A stretch of 10,744 nucleotides of DNA, taken from assembly GCA_016866975.1 (NCBI GenBank), contig VGKP01000022.1:1-10744 (forward strand), given 5' to 3'. Positions 6-10,744 of this stretch are shown piece after piece. The position numbers and the translations under genes were made by a program. The stretch is from Candidatus Pacearchaeota archaeon (GTDB lineage: Archaea; Nanobdellota; Nanobdellia; Pacearchaeales; GW2011-AR1). The notes beneath the pieces are model-generated. The model made no database searches. It was not told the DNA's origin and was given only the letters and a program-made list of their open reading frames with translations. The first letter of the stretch is position 1; each line of letters starts with the position of its first letter.

Positions 6-620
6 ATGTCAAGGAACTTGACTAAAACTCCAGCTTTTAAGCTGGAGTTGTTCCTTGAGCATCCAAAAAACGAGCGCCTGCATCAAACTGCGGCTTTTAA
101 GCCGCAGTGGCGCATCGTTTTTTTGATTTCAATTGTACCTTACCCTACAGGAAAAGTCATCGAAGATACTGGCAGAGCTGTTGCAGATGTCAAAGGCAAC
201 TATGTACAAGGAGAGCCTGTTACAGGAAAATTAAAATTGCAATTTACGGCCGGGGAGTTTGTACCAAGAGATTCACAGATTTTTGTTAAACTTGGAAGTC
301 AAGAGAAAGTGTTTCTTCTTTCTGAAGTATTTGCTGAACCTGCTCAAGAGGGAGTGTTTTTTGCAGAAGGCGTGGAGCTTGTAGGGACAGGAAAAGGCTA
401 TGGCGTTGCAGGTGTTAAGACTATATATCCAGATGTGAGCTTTGAACTACATATAGGGAAAGAAGCAAAGCCTGTCGATGAATCCTCTTCTACTCCAACT
501 AAAGAAGTCTCCAGGGGAGGCGGCGGAGGTGGTGAGAGGAAAGAAGACAAGAGAGCTGAAGAGAAGAAAGATGACAAAAATGAAAGTGACACTATCGTTT
601 TTCGAATAAATAATCGATAG
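6..620 (+). CDS. Hypothetical secreted or membrane-anchored protein, probably 5'-truncated by the window edge; first 40 codons mostly come from an in-frame copy of the double-hairpin element
   Basis: Open frame 6-620. After the repeat comes a hydrophobic stretch and PTGKVI, a beta-rich-looking region, then a Gly6 plus charged low-complexity tail. The ATG at 6-8 straddles the repeat junction, so the true start may lie upstream. Confidence 0.55.
   Translation: MSRNLTKTPAFKLELFLEHPKNERLHQTAAFKPQWRIVFLISIVPYPTGKVIEDTGRAVADVKGNYVQGEPVTGKLKLQFTAGEFVPRDSQIFVKLGSQEKVFLLSEVFAEPAQEGVFFAEGVELVGTGKGYGVAGVKTIYPDVSFELHIGKEAKPVDESSSTPTKEVSRGGGGGGERKEDKRAEEKKDDKNESDTIVFRINNR
8..124. mobile_element. Double-hairpin dispersed element, copy 1 (117 nt, full length); putative non-autonomous MITE/REP-like element
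   Basis: Hairpin A: TCAAGGAAC(9-17)/GTTCCTTGA(50-58), 8-nt bulge, AACTCCAGC(26-34)-TTTTAA-GCTGGAGTT(41-49). Hairpin B: AAAAAACGA(65-73)/TCGTTTTTT(115-123), GCGCC/GGCGC, 8-nt bulge TGCATCAA, ACTGCGGC(87-94)-TTTTAA-GCCGCAGT(101-108). Homologous to 6682-6796 and 2553-2613. Confidence 0.8.
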
Positions 621-6696: not shown

Positions 6697-6796
6697 AAAC
6701 CACACCTTTCAAGGTGTGGTGGTTCCCGAGCATCTCCAAAAACGAGCGCCTGCAACAAACCTCGGCTTTTAAGCCGAGGTGGCGCATCGTTTTTGT
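6682..6796. mobile_element. Double-hairpin element, copy 3 (115 nt, full length)
   Basis: Hairpin A: TCGGGAACC(6683-91)/GGTTCCCGA(6721-29), 7-nt bulge, ACCACACC-TTTCAA-GGTGTGGT. Hairpin B: CAAAAACGA/TCGTTTTTG, GCGCC/GGCGC, bulge TGCAACAA, ACCTCGGC-TTTTAA-GCCGAGGT. Covaries with copy 1. Confidence 0.8.
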
Positions 6797-6855
6797 GATC
6801 TTAAAGTCAATCATGTATTGGCCAAGAACGATCTTCAGCCCATAAATGTCTTGAG

Positions 6856-7467
6856 TCAGTAAGATTCCTTGTATCTGCCTCTACTTTCAACAAGCTTAAA
6901 TCTCTGCAAGACCAAAGAATAGTTTTTTGAAATCTTGTATCCTTGCATCACTGCCTTGAAGCACTTCTTAAAATCCCTATGATGCCTAGCTTCTAGAGCT
7001 TCTTTAATCAGATGCAGGTCAACTGCTTTGTCCTCTATACGACTTGATTCGAAACCTAGGCCGAAGTCAATGAAGTAAACGGAATTGTTTGGAGAGAGAA
7101 TCATGTTACTTGTTGTCAAGTCTCCGTGAATTATGTTTGCATCGTGAAGTTTTGCAATCTGAGAGCCTATCTTTCTGCAAATCGCAATTTTATTCTTTAA
7201 TTTATCTAAACAATCCGAAATCTTCTTGCCATTTATGTACTCCAATTCTATCAAAGACTTATCTTCAGAGAATGAAATCAACTCTGGGACAGGCACAATT
7301 GAAGATGCTTTCCTTATCAATCTAACTTCTTTTCTCGTCCTACTCTTTCTTATCTTTTCATCTAACTGAGATAATCTGTAACCTTTTTTGATCCTATTTT
7401 TGACAACTCTGTCTCTTTCTTTAAAAATTATGGCCTCTGCTCCTTGAGATATTACTTCAGAAATCAT
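6856..7467 (-). CDS. bud32: KEOPS complex kinase Bud32 (stand-alone, 203 aa)
   Basis: QGAEAII, RIKKGYR, RTRKEVRL, IIHGDLTTSNMIL, IDFGLG, EDKAVDLH and VESRGRY. Confidence 0.95.
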   Translation of the reverse strand: MISEVISQGAEAIIFKERDRVVKNRIKKGYRLSQLDEKIRKSRTRKEVRLIRKASSIVPVPELISFSEDKSLIELEYINGKKISDCLDKLKNKIAICRKIGSQIAKLHDANIIHGDLTTSNMILSPNNSVYFIDFGLGFESSRIEDKAVDLHLIKEALEARHHRDFKKCFKAVMQGYKISKNYSLVLQRFKLVESRGRYKESY

Positions 7468-7468
7468 A

Positions 7469-7711
7469 TTAGTCTTCTTGCAGATAGTTTCTTATCCCTT
7501 GTAAGGTATATCCTCCACAATCATCGTTAAAGAACAGCATCAACTCTTCATATCCTTTCTCATCCGTAGTATCTATCCTGGACAGACCAACTTCTTTCTG
7601 TCTGCAAAATTGAGATATCAAGGGCAGATTATTGATAAATTCCCCATAAATATTCGGAGCTAGGTCTCTTGTAAATAATATATCTGCAGTCTCGAATCTT
7701 AATTCCAACAT
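7469..7711 (-). CDS. Hypothetical protein (80 aa), co-oriented between srp54 and bud32
   Basis: Its start overlaps the srp54 stop by 1 nt and its stop lies 1 nt before the bud32 start, which suggests translational coupling. Confidence 0.65.
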   Translation of the reverse strand: MLELRFETADILFTRDLAPNIYGEFINNLPLISQFCRQKEVGLSRIDTTDEKGYEELMLFFNDDCGGYTLQGIRNYLQED

Positions 7712-9084
7712 CAGAATTTTACCTTCCTAGCAAATTTCTTTGCAAACTTCATCATTGTCTTCTGGTCTAACGCTCCTGACTCAAGGCCTTTCATTGCGGA
7801 TCCTGAGTGCATCATTTCCTTGAGGAGCCTATATTGTTTGATGAGGGCGCGAATATCGGAAGTTGTTGTTCCTGAACCTTTTGCGATACGGGCAATGCGA
7901 GAGGTCTGCTTCTCTAATATCTCAGGGTTTTCTTTCTCTTCTCTTGTCATAGATTTAATTGCTGCTTTCCAGTGTTTCATCTGATTTTCCTGCTTACTGA
8001 CTGCTTCAGTAGGCACTTTATCCTTGAGATGCCCTAATCCAGGAATATGTGAAAGCAATTTGTCAAAAGAACCCATCCCTGCCATTGACTCTAATTGTGA
8101 TGCGAAGTCATCTAAAGAAAACTTGCCTTCTTCAAGCCTTTTTTGTTGGGCCTCAATAGCGCTTTTGTCCACTACTGAGTGTATCTTTTCAAGCAACGAT
8201 TTAAGATCTCCCATGCCTAAAAGACGAGAGAGGAATGAGTCTGGGTCGAATGACTCAAGGTCCGATGGTTTTTCTCCAGTGCCTATAAATACTATAGGGG
8301 CTTTCACTTCTGCACATGCAGTAAGTGCACCTCCTGCTTTTGCCGTAGAATCCATTTTGGTAATTATCACACCCGTTATATCAAGGGCTTCTTTAAATGT
8401 CTGAGCTTGTTTTTTTGCCGTCTGGCCTACATCTGCAGACATTACAAGAAATGTCTCTGTTGGCTTTGCCAATTTTGCTATATCTTTTATCTCTTTTATT
8501 AGGTCTGAGGAGAGAGCGTCTCGGCCCGCAGTGTCAATAATGACTAGAGAGTATTTCTTTAATTCTGGCTCGAATTTTTTCCATATTTTCTTGGGGTCTT
8601 TTTCTTCTGGGGAAATGAAGGCTGGTATGTTTAACTTGTCGCAGAGTTGTTTCAACTGATCTGATGCGGCGGGTCGATGGACATCCAGTCCAATCGCGCA
8701 GACCTTGTTGCCTCTCTTGGCATAATATGACGCAAGCTTACTAATTGTAGTGGTCTTTCCTTGCCCATAAAGGCCGAGCATCATAAAAATGTTTCCCCTC
8801 TCTTTTAGCATGATATCTTTCTTTTCCCCTAAAAGACGTACCAGCTCTTCATGAAGGAGTTTAATGATATGTTCTTTTTTCTCAAGGCCTTTTATACGTT
8901 CATCCAAAGCAGCCTGCTTTATCTTCTTAGTAATTTCTAACACCAAGGAAATATTGACATCTGCTTCAATCAATGCCCTTTGAAGGTCTTTGATAATTTG
9001 GTCAACTAGTGCCTTGTCAAGAAAGATAGCATTCGCTATTTTATCTGTTGCTTTTTGCAGGACTGAAGAGAGTTTTTCTAACAT
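7711..9084 (-). CDS. srp54: Signal recognition particle 54 kDa protein (archaeal SRP54)
   Basis: N-domain LIEADVN, G1 GLYGQGKTTT, DVHRPAA, DTAGR, TKMD, GGALT, GTGEK, LLGMGDL, and a Met-rich M domain with IKSMTREE and RIAKGSG. Confidence 0.97.
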   Translation of the reverse strand: MLEKLSSVLQKATDKIANAIFLDKALVDQIIKDLQRALIEADVNISLVLEITKKIKQAALDERIKGLEKKEHIIKLLHEELVRLLGEKKDIMLKERGNIFMMLGLYGQGKTTTISKLASYYAKRGNKVCAIGLDVHRPAASDQLKQLCDKLNIPAFISPEEKDPKKIWKKFEPELKKYSLVIIDTAGRDALSSDLIKEIKDIAKLAKPTETFLVMSADVGQTAKKQAQTFKEALDITGVIITKMDSTAKAGGALTACAEVKAPIVFIGTGEKPSDLESFDPDSFLSRLLGMGDLKSLLEKIHSVVDKSAIEAQQKRLEEGKFSLDDFASQLESMAGMGSFDKLLSHIPGLGHLKDKVPTEAVSKQENQMKHWKAAIKSMTREEKENPEILEKQTSRIARIAKGSGTTTSDIRALIKQYRLLKEMMHSGSAMKGLESGALDQKTMMKFAKKFARKVKF

Positions 9085-9893
9085 GATAATGTGTCTAATG
9101 GACTCCTTATATTCTTTATGGAATGTTGAGATATGTGGGTATATATCTGAGTTGTTTTTATATCACTATGTCCCAAGAGCTTTTGAATTACTTTTAAATC
9201 TGTTCCTTGCTCGAGCAAGTGAGTGGCGAAACTGTGGCGCAGAAGATGAGGATAGACCTCTTTAGTAATCCTTGCCCTTATTGCCGCTTTCTCAACAATT
9301 GCCTGAATTGTAGCAGTAGTAAGTTTTCCACCTCTTTGAGATTGAAATAAGACTGTTCCCTGCGTTAAAACAGAATAGTTTTTCAACTTCTCTTTAATTG
9401 ATTCCGGTATTTTTACAAACCTGTCTTTTTTTCCTTTTGCCATTCTTATATGAATCAGACCTTCTTCAAAATTCAAGTCGTTTTTGTTTAAAGAGACAAT
9501 TTCTGAAACGCGGAGACCGCATCCATAAAGCACCTTAAGAATTAATTCATGCTTTACATTGAGAGGAGCATTAATTAATTTTCCAGCTTCTTCTTTTGTC
9601 AATATATCGGGTAAGATTTTATTTCTTTTCGGGCGCGGAATATTTATTTTGATATTAAGAACTTTTTCAAAGAAAAACTGAATTGCGAAAATTTCATGTG
9701 CAATCGTAGAAGGGGCTTGTGTCTTTATCTGAATTTGAATATAATCCTTAACTTCTTGTTCGCTAAACTGCTTGTTCTTTAAATAGTTTAAGAATTTATT
9801 TAGCGAGTTCGTATAACTTTTGAGAGTTTTGTGTGAAAAATTACGGATTTCAATCTCTTGCTGAAGTTTTTGCAGAGCTTCTTCTTTGTTCAT
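9078..9893 (-). CDS. Tyrosine recombinase (Xer/IntI-related, 271 aa) lacking the IntI-specific insertion
   Basis: Catalytic set YGCGLRVSE (R), AKGKKDR (K), HLLRHSFATH (HxxR), LLGHSDIKTTQIYTH (H, Y). N-terminal SAM-like IRNFSHKTLKSY and C-terminal IRSPLD. TATA-like ATTTAAAA (9915-9922, - strand) 21 nt upstream. Confidence 0.92.
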   Translation of the reverse strand: MNKEEALQKLQQEIEIRNFSHKTLKSYTNSLNKFLNYLKNKQFSEQEVKDYIQIQIKTQAPSTIAHEIFAIQFFFEKVLNIKINIPRPKRNKILPDILTKEEAGKLINAPLNVKHELILKVLYGCGLRVSEIVSLNKNDLNFEEGLIHIRMAKGKKDRFVKIPESIKEKLKNYSVLTQGTVLFQSQRGGKLTTATIQAIVEKAAIRARITKEVYPHLLRHSFATHLLEQGTDLKVIQKLLGHSDIKTTQIYTHISQHSIKNIRSPLDTLSC

Positions 9894-9948
9894 TTCTGCA
9901 TCATAGACTTTATCTTTTAAATATTTATGCTTATACCCTTTATTAGCA

Positions 9949-9976
9949 TGGTATCATAAATGTAATTATGATGCCA
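9949..9976. other. dif-like recombinase site (11-6-11)
   Basis: TGGTATCATAA-ATGTAA-TTATGATGCCA. The arms are inverted repeats (10/11), with the CATAA-N6-TTATG core of Xer dif sites, 55 nt upstream of the recombinase ATG. Confidence 0.7.
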
Positions 9977-9980
9977 TAGT

Positions 9981-9989
9981 GTTATACGC
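9981..9989 (+). other. Putative cassette insertion point (attI/R'-like core, G|TTATACGC)
   Basis: GTTATACGC is the exact reverse complement of GCGTATAAC at 10543-10551, at the far end of the cassette. Confidence 0.65.
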
Positions 9990-9991
9990 AA

Positions 9992-10006
9992 TAAAAACGA
10001 AGCCCC
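9992..10006. repeat. Left 15-bp inverted repeat bracketing the cassette ORF
   Basis: TAAAAACGAAGCCCC, perfect reverse complement of 10481-10495. Confidence 0.85.
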
Positions 10007-10070
10007 ACCTCGCGCTATGCGCGAAGACAAAACACAAACTATTTAAACTAAAAGATTTTAAGTGAATGAT

Positions 10071-10478
10071 ATGAGAAAAGGAGAATCTTCATTTAACAAT
10101 CTCAACAAAGTTCTTATAGGATTACTCATAATTGGATTAATCTCAAAATTATACAATCTCTATTTGAATAGAGCTACCTTCGAAAACTTTAATTTCATGT
10201 TTTCTTGGACACTAATTTTGGCTTTTGTTCTTCCTTTAATTTTCATTTACGGAGCAATCAAGCAATCAAAGTTTTGGTATATTGTTATGGGCATCTGGGT
10301 TTTTAGAGAGTTTGATAATATGTGGACAAATTATGTGATTGCTCCTTTAATGTTGGGAACAAAAGACCAATACTTCTTGTATAATTTTGCAATAACATTA
10401 TTACTTCTTGGAATAGCAGTAATTGGAGTAATCCTATACTTAAAATCTTTTAAAACAATAAAAGAAGCAGTTGAATAG
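10071..10478 (+). CDS. Hypothetical 4-TM membrane protein (135 aa from ATG 10071), cassette cargo
   Basis: Four hydrophobic segments. TATA-like TTTAAACT (10042-10049) lies 21 nt before ATG 10071, which favours that start over GTG 10062. Confidence 0.8.
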   Translation: MRKGESSFNNLNKVLIGLLIIGLISKLYNLYLNRATFENFNFMFSWTLILAFVLPLIFIYGAIKQSKFWYIVMGIWVFREFDNMWTNYVIAPLMLGTKDQYFLYNFAITLLLLGIAVIGVILYLKSFKTIKEAVE

Positions 10479-10480
10479 TA

Positions 10481-10495
10481 GGGGCTTCGTTTTTA
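10481..10495. repeat. Right 15-bp inverted repeat bracketing the cassette ORF
   Basis: GGGGCTTCGTTTTTA, 2 nt after the stop codon. Confidence 0.85.
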
Positions 10496-10497
10496 CT

Positions 10498-10540
10498 TTC
10501 TCGCTACGCTCGAACCACATTGCATTCTCGCTTACGCTCG
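10498..10540. repeat. Short direct repeat TTCTCGC(T)TACGCTCG, two copies
   Basis: 10498-10512 and 10525-10540 differ by one inserted T. Confidence 0.75.
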
Positions 10541-10544
10541 GGGC

Positions 10545-10656
10545 GTATAACAGCGATTTAACGGCTCGGAGGTTGCACCTCCTCAACCCATATTTTTTGC
10601 TTATTGATTATTTTTTTAGATAGTGCAAAAAACATCGTTAAATCGCGATGTTATAT
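10545..10656 (+). other. attC-like folded recombination site (112 nt)
   Basis: R''-like GTATAAC (10545-51) and R'-like GTTATAT (10650-56). TATAACA pairs with TGTTATA; GCGATTTAACG (10553-63) pairs perfectly with CGTTAAATCGC (10636-46); 2-nt GA bulge at 10647-48. Inner stems GGAGGT/ACCTCC and TTTTTTGC/GCAAAAAA. Confidence 0.7.
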
Positions 10657-10744
10657 TCAATCGTCGTGTAGAATTATAGAAGGGGGAGCCGTCGCACGAG
10701 GTTCCTTCGGAACAGATAGTCTTCAGCTTCGCTTCAGAATTATT

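Follow-up and report, generated by a model that had tools for sequence, protein, structure and literature searches.

Can gene cassettes be captured in the manner of an integron by a tyrosine recombinase without the insertion that sets the integron integrase IntI apart? The I2 helix of IntI is held to be the innovation that enabled recombination of folded single-stranded attC sites (PMC7790495). The archaeal integrons published so far were called with IntI and attC models, as a preliminary description of the locus studied here had correctly stated, and 75 archaeal genomes contained 539 attC sites and six IntIs (Ghaly et al. 2022, PMC9668308). The question is raised by a 10,744-nucleotide (nt) stretch of DNA (the window) from a Candidatus Pacearchaeota archaeon (assembly GCA_016866975.1, contig VGKP01000022.1), which is the whole of contig C22 of genome G000 (806 kb, 31 contigs, 38% GC, 89% complete) and encodes a Xer-sized recombinase, P0001, beside a cassette and an attC-like site. 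We consider it likely that the locus is the recombinase-proximal end of a chromosomal integron-like cassette platform in a DPANN (Pacearchaeota-type) archaeon. This reading is built on site anatomy, covariation, the footprint of the crossover, the presence and absence of cassette 1, and the linkage of arrays to one recombinase clade. Labels beginning with G denote genomes (G000 being the window's own), those with C denote G000 contigs, and those with L denote extracted contigs or loci (L003 is C16, and L005 is C7). The preliminary description had placed a recombinase, two cores, a single-gene cassette, and an attC-like hairpin in an integron layout, and every one of these elements was found in its place, as follows (basis in parentheses).

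9078-9893, minus strand: tyrosine recombinase P0001, 271 amino acids (aa), XerA family, clade A (profile searches, structure alignment, tree)
9948-9977, no strand assigned: attI-like stem, the palindrome ATGGTATCATAA-ATGTAA-TTATGATGCCAT, 12+6+12 with one mismatch (sequence, fold, orthologues)
9978-9989, plus strand: attI core, AGT-GTT-ATACGC (L056/L057 junctions)
9981-9987, plus strand: first core, GTTATAC (sequence)
9984-10652, plus strand: cassette 1, 669 bp, from after the attI GTT through the attC GTT (present and absent alleles)
9992-10006, plus strand: 5' half of the outer stem, TAAAAACGAAGCCCC (perfect 15-nt inverted repeat with 10481-10495)
10481-10495, plus strand: 3' half of the outer stem, GGGGCTTCGTTTTTA (inverted repeat, junction fold)
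10543-10652, plus strand: attC-like site (fold, covariance-model match of 106 bits, covariation across 20 sites)
10543-10600, plus strand, 5' parts of that site: R'' GCGTATAAC 10543-10551, A 10552, L'' GCGATTTAACG 10553-10563, inner hairpin 10568-10582, CCCATATTTTTTGC 10587-10600
10636-10652, plus strand, 3' parts of that site: L' CGTTAAATCGC 10636-10646, bulge GA 10647-10648, T 10649, GTT 10650-10652
10650-10656, plus strand: second core, GTTATAT (sequence)
10653-10744, plus strand: first part of cassette 2, truncated at the contig end (continued on L056)

The exact P0001 protein was also found on contigs of other assemblies (L055, L056, and L057). The occupied allele, which holds the 669-bp cassette 1, is carried by G000 and L055, and the empty allele is carried by the metagenome contigs L056 (JGI 3300020198) and L057 (SRR7985589), in which window positions 9894-9986 are joined straight to 10649-10744. 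The upstream DNA of L056 and L057, including the recombinase and attI, is 100% identical to the window through position 9986. The two sides of the empty junction (...CCATAGTGTTATATTCAATCG...) overlap by 7 nt, TGTTATA, and the crossover is located within this TGTTATA at 9980-9986. At the contig level, cassette 1 is either there or missing as an exact 669-bp unit between the attI and attC cores. Identical gene content in all relatives had been named beforehand as an observation that would speak against a cassette system, and the opposite is seen; gene content 3' of the recombinase differs among orthologous loci, with the change starting exactly at GTT, and cassette 1 is present or absent within one population. 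L055 also carries a hybrid of the first attC-like site (128-274, minus strand, against window 10541-10660), which has the same R'', L'', and inner hairpin, an unrelated 51-nt apical loop, and an L' with two changes. The cassette that follows it differs and starts with GTTAAGTTCAATTGAG, and the same 16-nt start is found on a G018 cassette.

The docking site has a constant form. AGT-GTT lies directly 3' of the 9948-9977 palindrome, and a palindrome followed by N3-GTT is present upstream of every P0001-type orthologue, with unrelated genes beyond the GTT; by-eye guesses for these genes include aspartate-racemase-like, peptidase-like, and possible radical S-adenosylmethionine (SAM)-type proteins, among others. 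The related contigs L008 and L012 terminate exactly at ...AATGTT and ...AATGTTAT. The 12+6+12 palindrome of the window agrees with dif geometry (PMC8371274). Among the orthologous loci, however, covariation is seen in the arms and the spacer can be as short as 4 nt or as long as 58 nt, and therefore a hairpin stem fits better than a fixed dif core. The attI (stem-AGT-GTT) and attC (L'-GAT-GTT) sites have a common geometry, in which an arm is followed by a "central region" of 6-7 nt that closes with GTT and then by cassette-specific DNA.

In the attC-like site of the window, GCGTATAAC-A-GCGATTTAACG (10543-10563) pairs with CGTTAAATCGC-GA-T-GTTATA (10636-10655), forming a stem of 18 bp with a single 2-nt bulge. 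The almost fully paired stem of the preliminary description is thereby confirmed, with the bulge being GA at 10647-10648. The predicted single-stranded fold has energies of -20.9 kcal/mol for the top strand and -23.1 kcal/mol for the bottom strand (z scores of -4.7 and -5.1), and none of 200 shuffles was as stable. No Rfam family was found in 9850-10744. The near-complete pairing fits an enzyme without I2, since there are no spaced extrahelical bases to be read. The five aligned sites of G000 follow the pattern RYNYAAC-A-(11-nt L'')-small hairpin-CCCAAATTT...AAACTT-(L')-GA-T-GTT, in which the arms differ in sequence yet remain complementary. A covariance model built from these five sites recovers them and one half site in G000. 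Over 20 further model matches from relatives, 86% of the cells are paired, as opposed to 31-38% when the partner column is slid; both-sided changes occur in 16 of 18 pairs, the 11-bp L helix is 93% paired, and none of 500 shuffles attains the observed values. Since the 20-site alignment was fitted to the model, it favours the structure, but a genuine signal is indicated by the slid controls and by arm sequences that are unrelated to each other.

The point of exchange left a footprint at the junctions. At 10 junctions from five genomes, the six bases past GTT were compared with the six before AAC (the R'' flank); complementarity holds at 45 of 60 positions for the start of the cassette itself and at 28 of 60 for that of the following cassette, and the match of the own start is at least 5/6 at 7 of the 10 junctions. 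An extra junction on L068, read directly, gives 6/6 for the own start and 1/6 for the next. For cassette 1 of the window, the match to GCGTATAAC covers 9/9 positions with the own start GTTATACGC and 7/9 with the start of the next cassette, GTTATATTC. The six bases past GTT thus fit the R'' flank of their own cassette, and therefore the DNA 3' of GTT moves with the downstream cassette, as in integrons. The 15-nt inverted repeat (9992-10006 and 10481-10495) makes up an additional outer stem of the attC-like site, whose halves integration has separated. Folds of the own-start junction and of the array context reach -49.5 and -31.9 kcal/mol in the window and -39.3 and -24.6 and -46.1 and -34.9 kcal/mol in two other genomes, which makes the own-start folds 11-18 kcal/mol more stable in these three genomes. 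In the 20 further sites, the two outermost stem pairs are mostly unpaired in the array context.

Further units of open reading frame (ORF) plus AAC...GTT hairpin, which had been predicted from the window, are present on C16, on C7, and on the extending contigs L056 and L068. C22 stops 92 nt past the second core, so that the array is cut by the assembly break, and L056 continues cassette 2 with a gene for a B12-binding radical SAM protein and, judged by eye, an Lrp/AsnC-like gene. In G000, five sites are complete and at least three more are half sites. The end of C16 begins inside a near-identical site and carries two full sites and one 5'-half site with small ORFs between them, and L068, from another assembly, prolongs this array by two cassettes. 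Another small array occupies 36.5-40.6 kb of C7. All sites of an array have one orientation, whatever the orientation of the genes. A hairpin on C17 (8321-8384, TATAAC...GTTAT) gave no match to the site model and was not counted. The genes srp54 and ftsY are adjacent in G022 and G030, and in G018 they are set apart by the recombinase and ~20 kb of same-strand sites; in G000, srp54 lies at the end of C22 and ftsY at the end of C16. Judging by this synteny, a single array probably has its ends on C22 and C16, and no contig bridging them was found.

The 4.1-kb C7 array is bracketed by a 15-nt direct repeat, AAACCCATAGAGAGG, which occurs genome-wide only at C7 40625-40639 and 36514-36528 (minus strand), corresponding to L005 10626-10640 and 6515-6529. 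It is also flanked by an inverted 10-mer (TTACTCAGTG and CACTGAGTAA), with GTTATGC at the proximal and GTTATAC at the distal junction. This flank looks like a secondary hairpin-type docking site without an adjacent recombinase. At the distal ends of L003 (14370-14445, minus strand) and L005 (~6780-6860, minus strand), 5'-half sites were found, which consist of AAC-A-L''-small hairpin-CCCAAATT and lack the L'/GTT half.

P0001 contains the Pfam domains PF00589 (146 bits) and, at the N terminus, PF13495, and all of its catalytic residues were located (R128, H216, R219, H242, and Y251). It scores 234.3 against the archaeal XerA model NF040815 of NCBIfam, above the cut-off of 220, and two other clade A enzymes score 206-207, under that cut-off. 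In line with the preliminary description, P0001 is not an IntI; it scores 202.6 on the integron-integrase model TIGR02249 (cut-off of 265), aligning in two stretches, and 135.8 on NF011946 (cut-off of 435), and six other clade A and clade H proteins likewise lie below both cut-offs. Its best match among solved structures is Pyrococcus abyssi XerA (4a8e; E value of 4e-43), with an end-to-end alignment. The claim that there is no room for the IntI insertion holds as well. Against Vibrio cholerae IntIA (PDB 2a3v), P0001 residues 177-192 lie opposite chain residues 184-243, so that ~44 residues of the I2 region are missing, and the spacing from KDR to HLLRH is 57 residues. All 44 related enzymes are 268-303 aa long, and the three IntI references are 323-346 aa long. 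G000 has two tyrosine recombinases, P0001 and P0003 (on C7), which are 39% identical, both Xer-sized and both without the IntI insertion. The N- and C-terminal features that had been described as IntI-like are present in P0001, but they are not specific to IntI; the PF13495 domain and an SPLD-type C terminus were rejected as IntI evidence, since housekeeping XerA paralogues have both, with P0003 ending in ...KNPLD and having the same IntI-model score as P0001.

Phylogenetic analysis was applied to 44 enzymes that came from 41 searched genomes, G000 among them, with support from the Shimodaira-Hasegawa-like approximate likelihood ratio test (SH-aLRT). Clade H (26 rows, SH-aLRT of 95) holds P0003 and groups largely by genus or family. 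Clade A (15 rows) holds P0001 and all seven full-length array-adjacent enzymes (from G000, G011, G018, G022, G023, G026, and G030), none of which falls in clade H, and an array-adjacent fragment is present in G035. In these eight genomes, same-strand arrays begin ~0.2-1.5 kb from the 5' end of the recombinase and run away from the gene. On the 5' side, a contig end is reached after 75-634 nt for seven further clade A genes, and 2 of 26 clade H genes have one within 650 nt. Clade A genes have a patchy distribution (16 of 41 genomes), and P0001 is not, by its sequence relationships, orthologous to the near-universal housekeeping XerA copy. Whole-genome matches to the site model occur in 11 of the 16 genomes with a clade A gene versus 5 of the 25 without one, a descriptive comparison given that related genomes are not independent. 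When three bacterial IntIs and Escherichia coli XerC and XerD were added to the tree, IntI, clade A, and clade H formed separate groups in a polytomy, and placement of IntI by the tree was given up because "ancestral" and "parallel" origins are indistinguishable in it. A candidate for the housekeeping dif, C2 33699-33726 (TATATCCAAAT-N6-CTTTGGATATA), was also dropped, having a single 3-mismatch match (in G026) among 40 relatives, and no dif site was identified.

It is unlikely, though the strongest of the competing explanations, that the cassettes are real and owe their movement to the housekeeping XerA acting in trans (clade H; P0003 in G000), as integrative mobile elements exploiting Xer (IMEXs), such as CTX phage, use XerCD at dif. 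On this view, the role left to the clade A gene beside the array would be that of a passenger, of a regulator, or of an integrase for the whole platform. The profile scores are compatible with this, as the two paralogues are alike in their IntI-model scores and reach, or come near, the cut-off of the XerA model, and P. abyssi XerA is reported to bind stem-loop att sites, albeit with lower affinity (PMC8371274). Also for it, the C7 array lies 20 kb from P0003 with no recombinase adjoining, and five genomes with attC-like sites have no clade A gene. Against it, no site was found within the ~3-kb flank searched of any clade H gene (E<1e-3), the attI palindrome with its GTT is specific to the region upstream of clade A genes, and G018 holds arrays with solely a clade A-type enzyme.

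A quite improbable explanation is that the arrays are the remnant of an ordinary integron, a cluster of attC sites lacking an integron integrase (CALIN), with a true IntI unassembled, lost, or exogenous and the Xer neighbour coincidental. In its favour, the archaeal arrays of Ghaly et al. (2022), Nanoarchaeota included, were mostly CALINs (PMC9668308), and G000 is 89% complete. However, 301 genomes of the phylum, nearly all of them at least 90% complete, yielded no IntI over the TIGR02249 cut-off. Moreover, eight genomes from several genera and families have arrays adjoining a clade A recombinase, the clade A gene has an attI-like junction at a fixed place beside it, and a stem with a single 2-3-nt bulge is unlike the canonical attC. 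Least probable of all is that the hairpins are terminator-like or repetitive extragenic palindromic (REP)-like repeats and that the cassette 1 polymorphism arose by slippage or microhomology deletion between the two TGTTATA copies. T-rich tracts after the small hairpin (CCCAAATTTTT) do resemble terminators and a 7-nt direct repeat is common to both cores, but the deletion ends coincide exactly with conserved attI and attC cores, the bases past GTT fit the own cassette's 5' flank in five genomes, site orientation is uniform per array regardless of gene orientation, and the arrays are linked to one recombinase clade.

Several observations weigh against an integron-like platform served by clade A enzymes. 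A microhomology deletion over 7 nt could in principle give the same empty allele. The complementarity rule is broken at 3 of 11 junctions, and one of these breaks is explained by two near-duplicate attC-like sites within the same array (L068 1231-1403 and L003 15142-15262, minus strand), whose halves are 93-100% identical and whose R'' flanks differ, which suggests exchange between sites. Arrays end in 5'-half sites, the break always falling just after CCCAAATT, for which a simple model gives no explanation, nor does it explain the hybrid attC of L055. Support for clade A is only moderate (SH-aLRT of 80-83), and five genomes with attC-like matches have no clade A gene. G018 has one recombinase only, the array-adjacent clade A-type enzyme, and therefore a dedicated paralogue is usual rather than universal. 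The role of P0001 as a candidate catalyst is deduced from linkage, and the movement of cassette 1 from contigs. Metagenome scans for the 5' end of cassette 1 (GTTATACGCAATAAAAACGAAGCCCC, in any context, the circle junction included) and for attI (TAATTATGATGCCATAGTGTT) returned nothing, which is no evidence either way, as near-identical records were perhaps not covered.

In the integron-like platform that we favour, each mobile unit carries a gene, often with its own promoter, and ends in N6-AAC, an A, the 11-nt L'', and, after the intervening DNA, L', N2-3, T, and GTT. The attI site is a hairpin or palindrome followed by N3-GTT, directly upstream of an XerA-family recombinase gene, and site-specific recombination at or next to GTT would insert and excise cassettes. 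The cassette, single-stranded or circular, is predicted to fold into an outer stem, an R stem (N6 and AAC pairing with GTT and N6), a 2-3-nt bulge, the 11-bp L stem, and an apical domain. The folded site may mimic a Xer core, in which a central region of 6-7 nt (GATGTT) follows an arm of 11 bp; the other arm would require pairing between the R'' flank of the cassette and the 5' end of that same cassette. The adjacent clade A recombinase, the probable catalyst, would bind this Xer-core-like fold and attI and exchange strands at or next to GTT, and the excised circle is predicted to carry the junction ...TTAAATCGCGATGTT-ATACGCAATAAAAACG... (L'-GATGTT-ATACGC). The cassettes appear to carry their own TATA-type promoters and lie in both orientations. 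The acting enzyme, the folded single-stranded substrate, and the strand used are what we infer from the data. For recombination of a folded bottom strand, the covariation and the stable fold of both strands are indirect evidence. The original proposal of a cassette system driven by a non-IntI tyrosine recombinase gains support from the further units, the variable content, and the NF040815 score, with catalysis deduced from linkage. That this Xer-sized DPANN lineage without I2 is the working integrase of integron-type arrays, acting on nearly fully paired folded sites, is a proposition that we hold to be evenly balanced.

If it is true, cassette capture does not depend on the I2 innovation, and the locus would be a living example of single-strand-hairpin cassette capture without I2, whether as a stage before IntI or as an integron invented independently. 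It would also explain many of the "integrase-less" archaeal arrays, or CALINs, behind the 539 attC sites and six IntIs mentioned above (PMC9668308). Mobile accessory genes of DPANN archaea would form a pool that IntI-based tools overlook. A literature search, with subscription journals outside its coverage, found no paper that connects XerA-type enzymes with attC-like arrays. The candidate substrates attI and attC are defined here to the nucleotide.

The remaining features of the window are the flanking gene and the contents of cassette 1, as follows.

7711-9084, minus strand: srp54, the conserved flank (ORF list; Pfam SRP54 domains on the identical gene in L055)
10040-10047, plus strand: TATA-like box TATTTAAA, 24 nt before the ATG (read from sequence)
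10071-10478, plus strand: cassette ORF, 135 aa from the ATG, or 138 aa from a GTG at 10062 (called as a 135-aa gene on L055)

The stop of the recombinase gene and the start of srp54 overlap by 7 nt (9078-9084), and the two genes are probably co-transcribed; because of this overlap, the candidate cassette integrase appears to be co-transcribed with an essential gene. The synteny of srp54 and the recombinase is kept in G018, with a gap of 4 nt between them. In G006 and G003, the gene next to the clade A recombinase is not srp54 but a conserved one of ~98 aa (MNKTIALHDKKHSIPRC...; L008 1196-1495, minus strand, and L011 2310-2603, plus strand), and therefore the platform occupies different chromosomal places within the genus. 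The TATA-like box is a putative promoter of the cassette's own, and the cassette 1 product is a small hydrophobic protein, probably of the membrane. No Pfam or NCBIfam family was found for the cassette ORFs on C22, C16, and C7, and an exact-protein look-up of the cassette 1 product returned only the known context. Two other repeats were noted in G000. A dispersed hairpin repeat, AAAACTCCAGC-TTTTAA-GCTGGAGTTGT, lies at window positions 24-51 and has ~40 copies genome-wide (e.g., C1 39245, C2 34633, and C3 12517), and its GCTGGAGTT occurs 81 times when both strands are counted together. A 29-nt palindrome, TACAATGAGCT-AGATGTT-AGCTCACTGTA, which has GATGTT inside, is identical at three contig ends (C2 96830-96858, C10 16-44, and C21 84-112) and is part of a collapsed repeat.

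The system resembles integrons in its divergent tyrosine recombinase gene beside a docking site, its chromosomal location, and its one-orientation array of cassettes with mostly unassigned functions. Each cassette here likewise has an imperfect palindromic site with AAC...GTT cores and covarying arms whose structure is conserved, and the crossover lies at or next to GTT, with the bases that follow being part of the next cassette. It differs from integrons in its enzyme, which has no I2 insertion and falls below the IntI-model cut-off, and in its stem, which by eye is nearly fully paired with one 2-3-nt bulge, whereas the integron attC has spaced extrahelical bases. In addition, the fold continues beyond the crossover with an outer stem of 12-15 bp whose two halves lie apart in the cassette, the attI site too is a hairpin or palindrome, and the cassettes seem to have their own TATA-type promoters and lie in either orientation, whereas integrons use a common Pc promoter.

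Archaeal XerA (P. abyssi 4a8e and Thermoplasma acidophilum 5hxy) is the closest structural and sequence relative of P0001; the 9948-9977 palindrome has roughly the 11+6+11 geometry of dif, and the arm-N6-arm logic suits the folded site. However, P0001 belongs to a patchy paralogous clade outside the one that tracks the species tree, the spacer of the palindrome varies from 4 to 58 nt among orthologues, and the exchange point lies outside the palindrome. In Thermococcales, moreover, dif is not adjacent to xerA (PMC2958812).

Two systems that use Xer recombinases on mobile DNA offer further parallels. CTX phage, an IMEX that uses XerCD at dif, is integrated by XerC through a folded single-stranded attP hairpin. 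The platform described here would share with it a Xer-type enzyme without I2 acting on a folded hairpin that mimics a paired core, as well as tandem arrays at one chromosomal site. In contrast to phages and plasmids, the units here are small one- or two-gene cassettes, a dedicated paralogue is linked to the site, and the docking site lies beside the recombinase gene rather than at the replication terminus. In the pdif modules of Acinetobacter plasmids, genes are bracketed by double-stranded dif-like sites that bind XerC/XerD and alternate in orientation. Both systems consist of discrete accessory-gene modules bounded by Xer-type sites, and pdif differs in lacking a hairpin, an attI platform, and a dedicated recombinase beside it.

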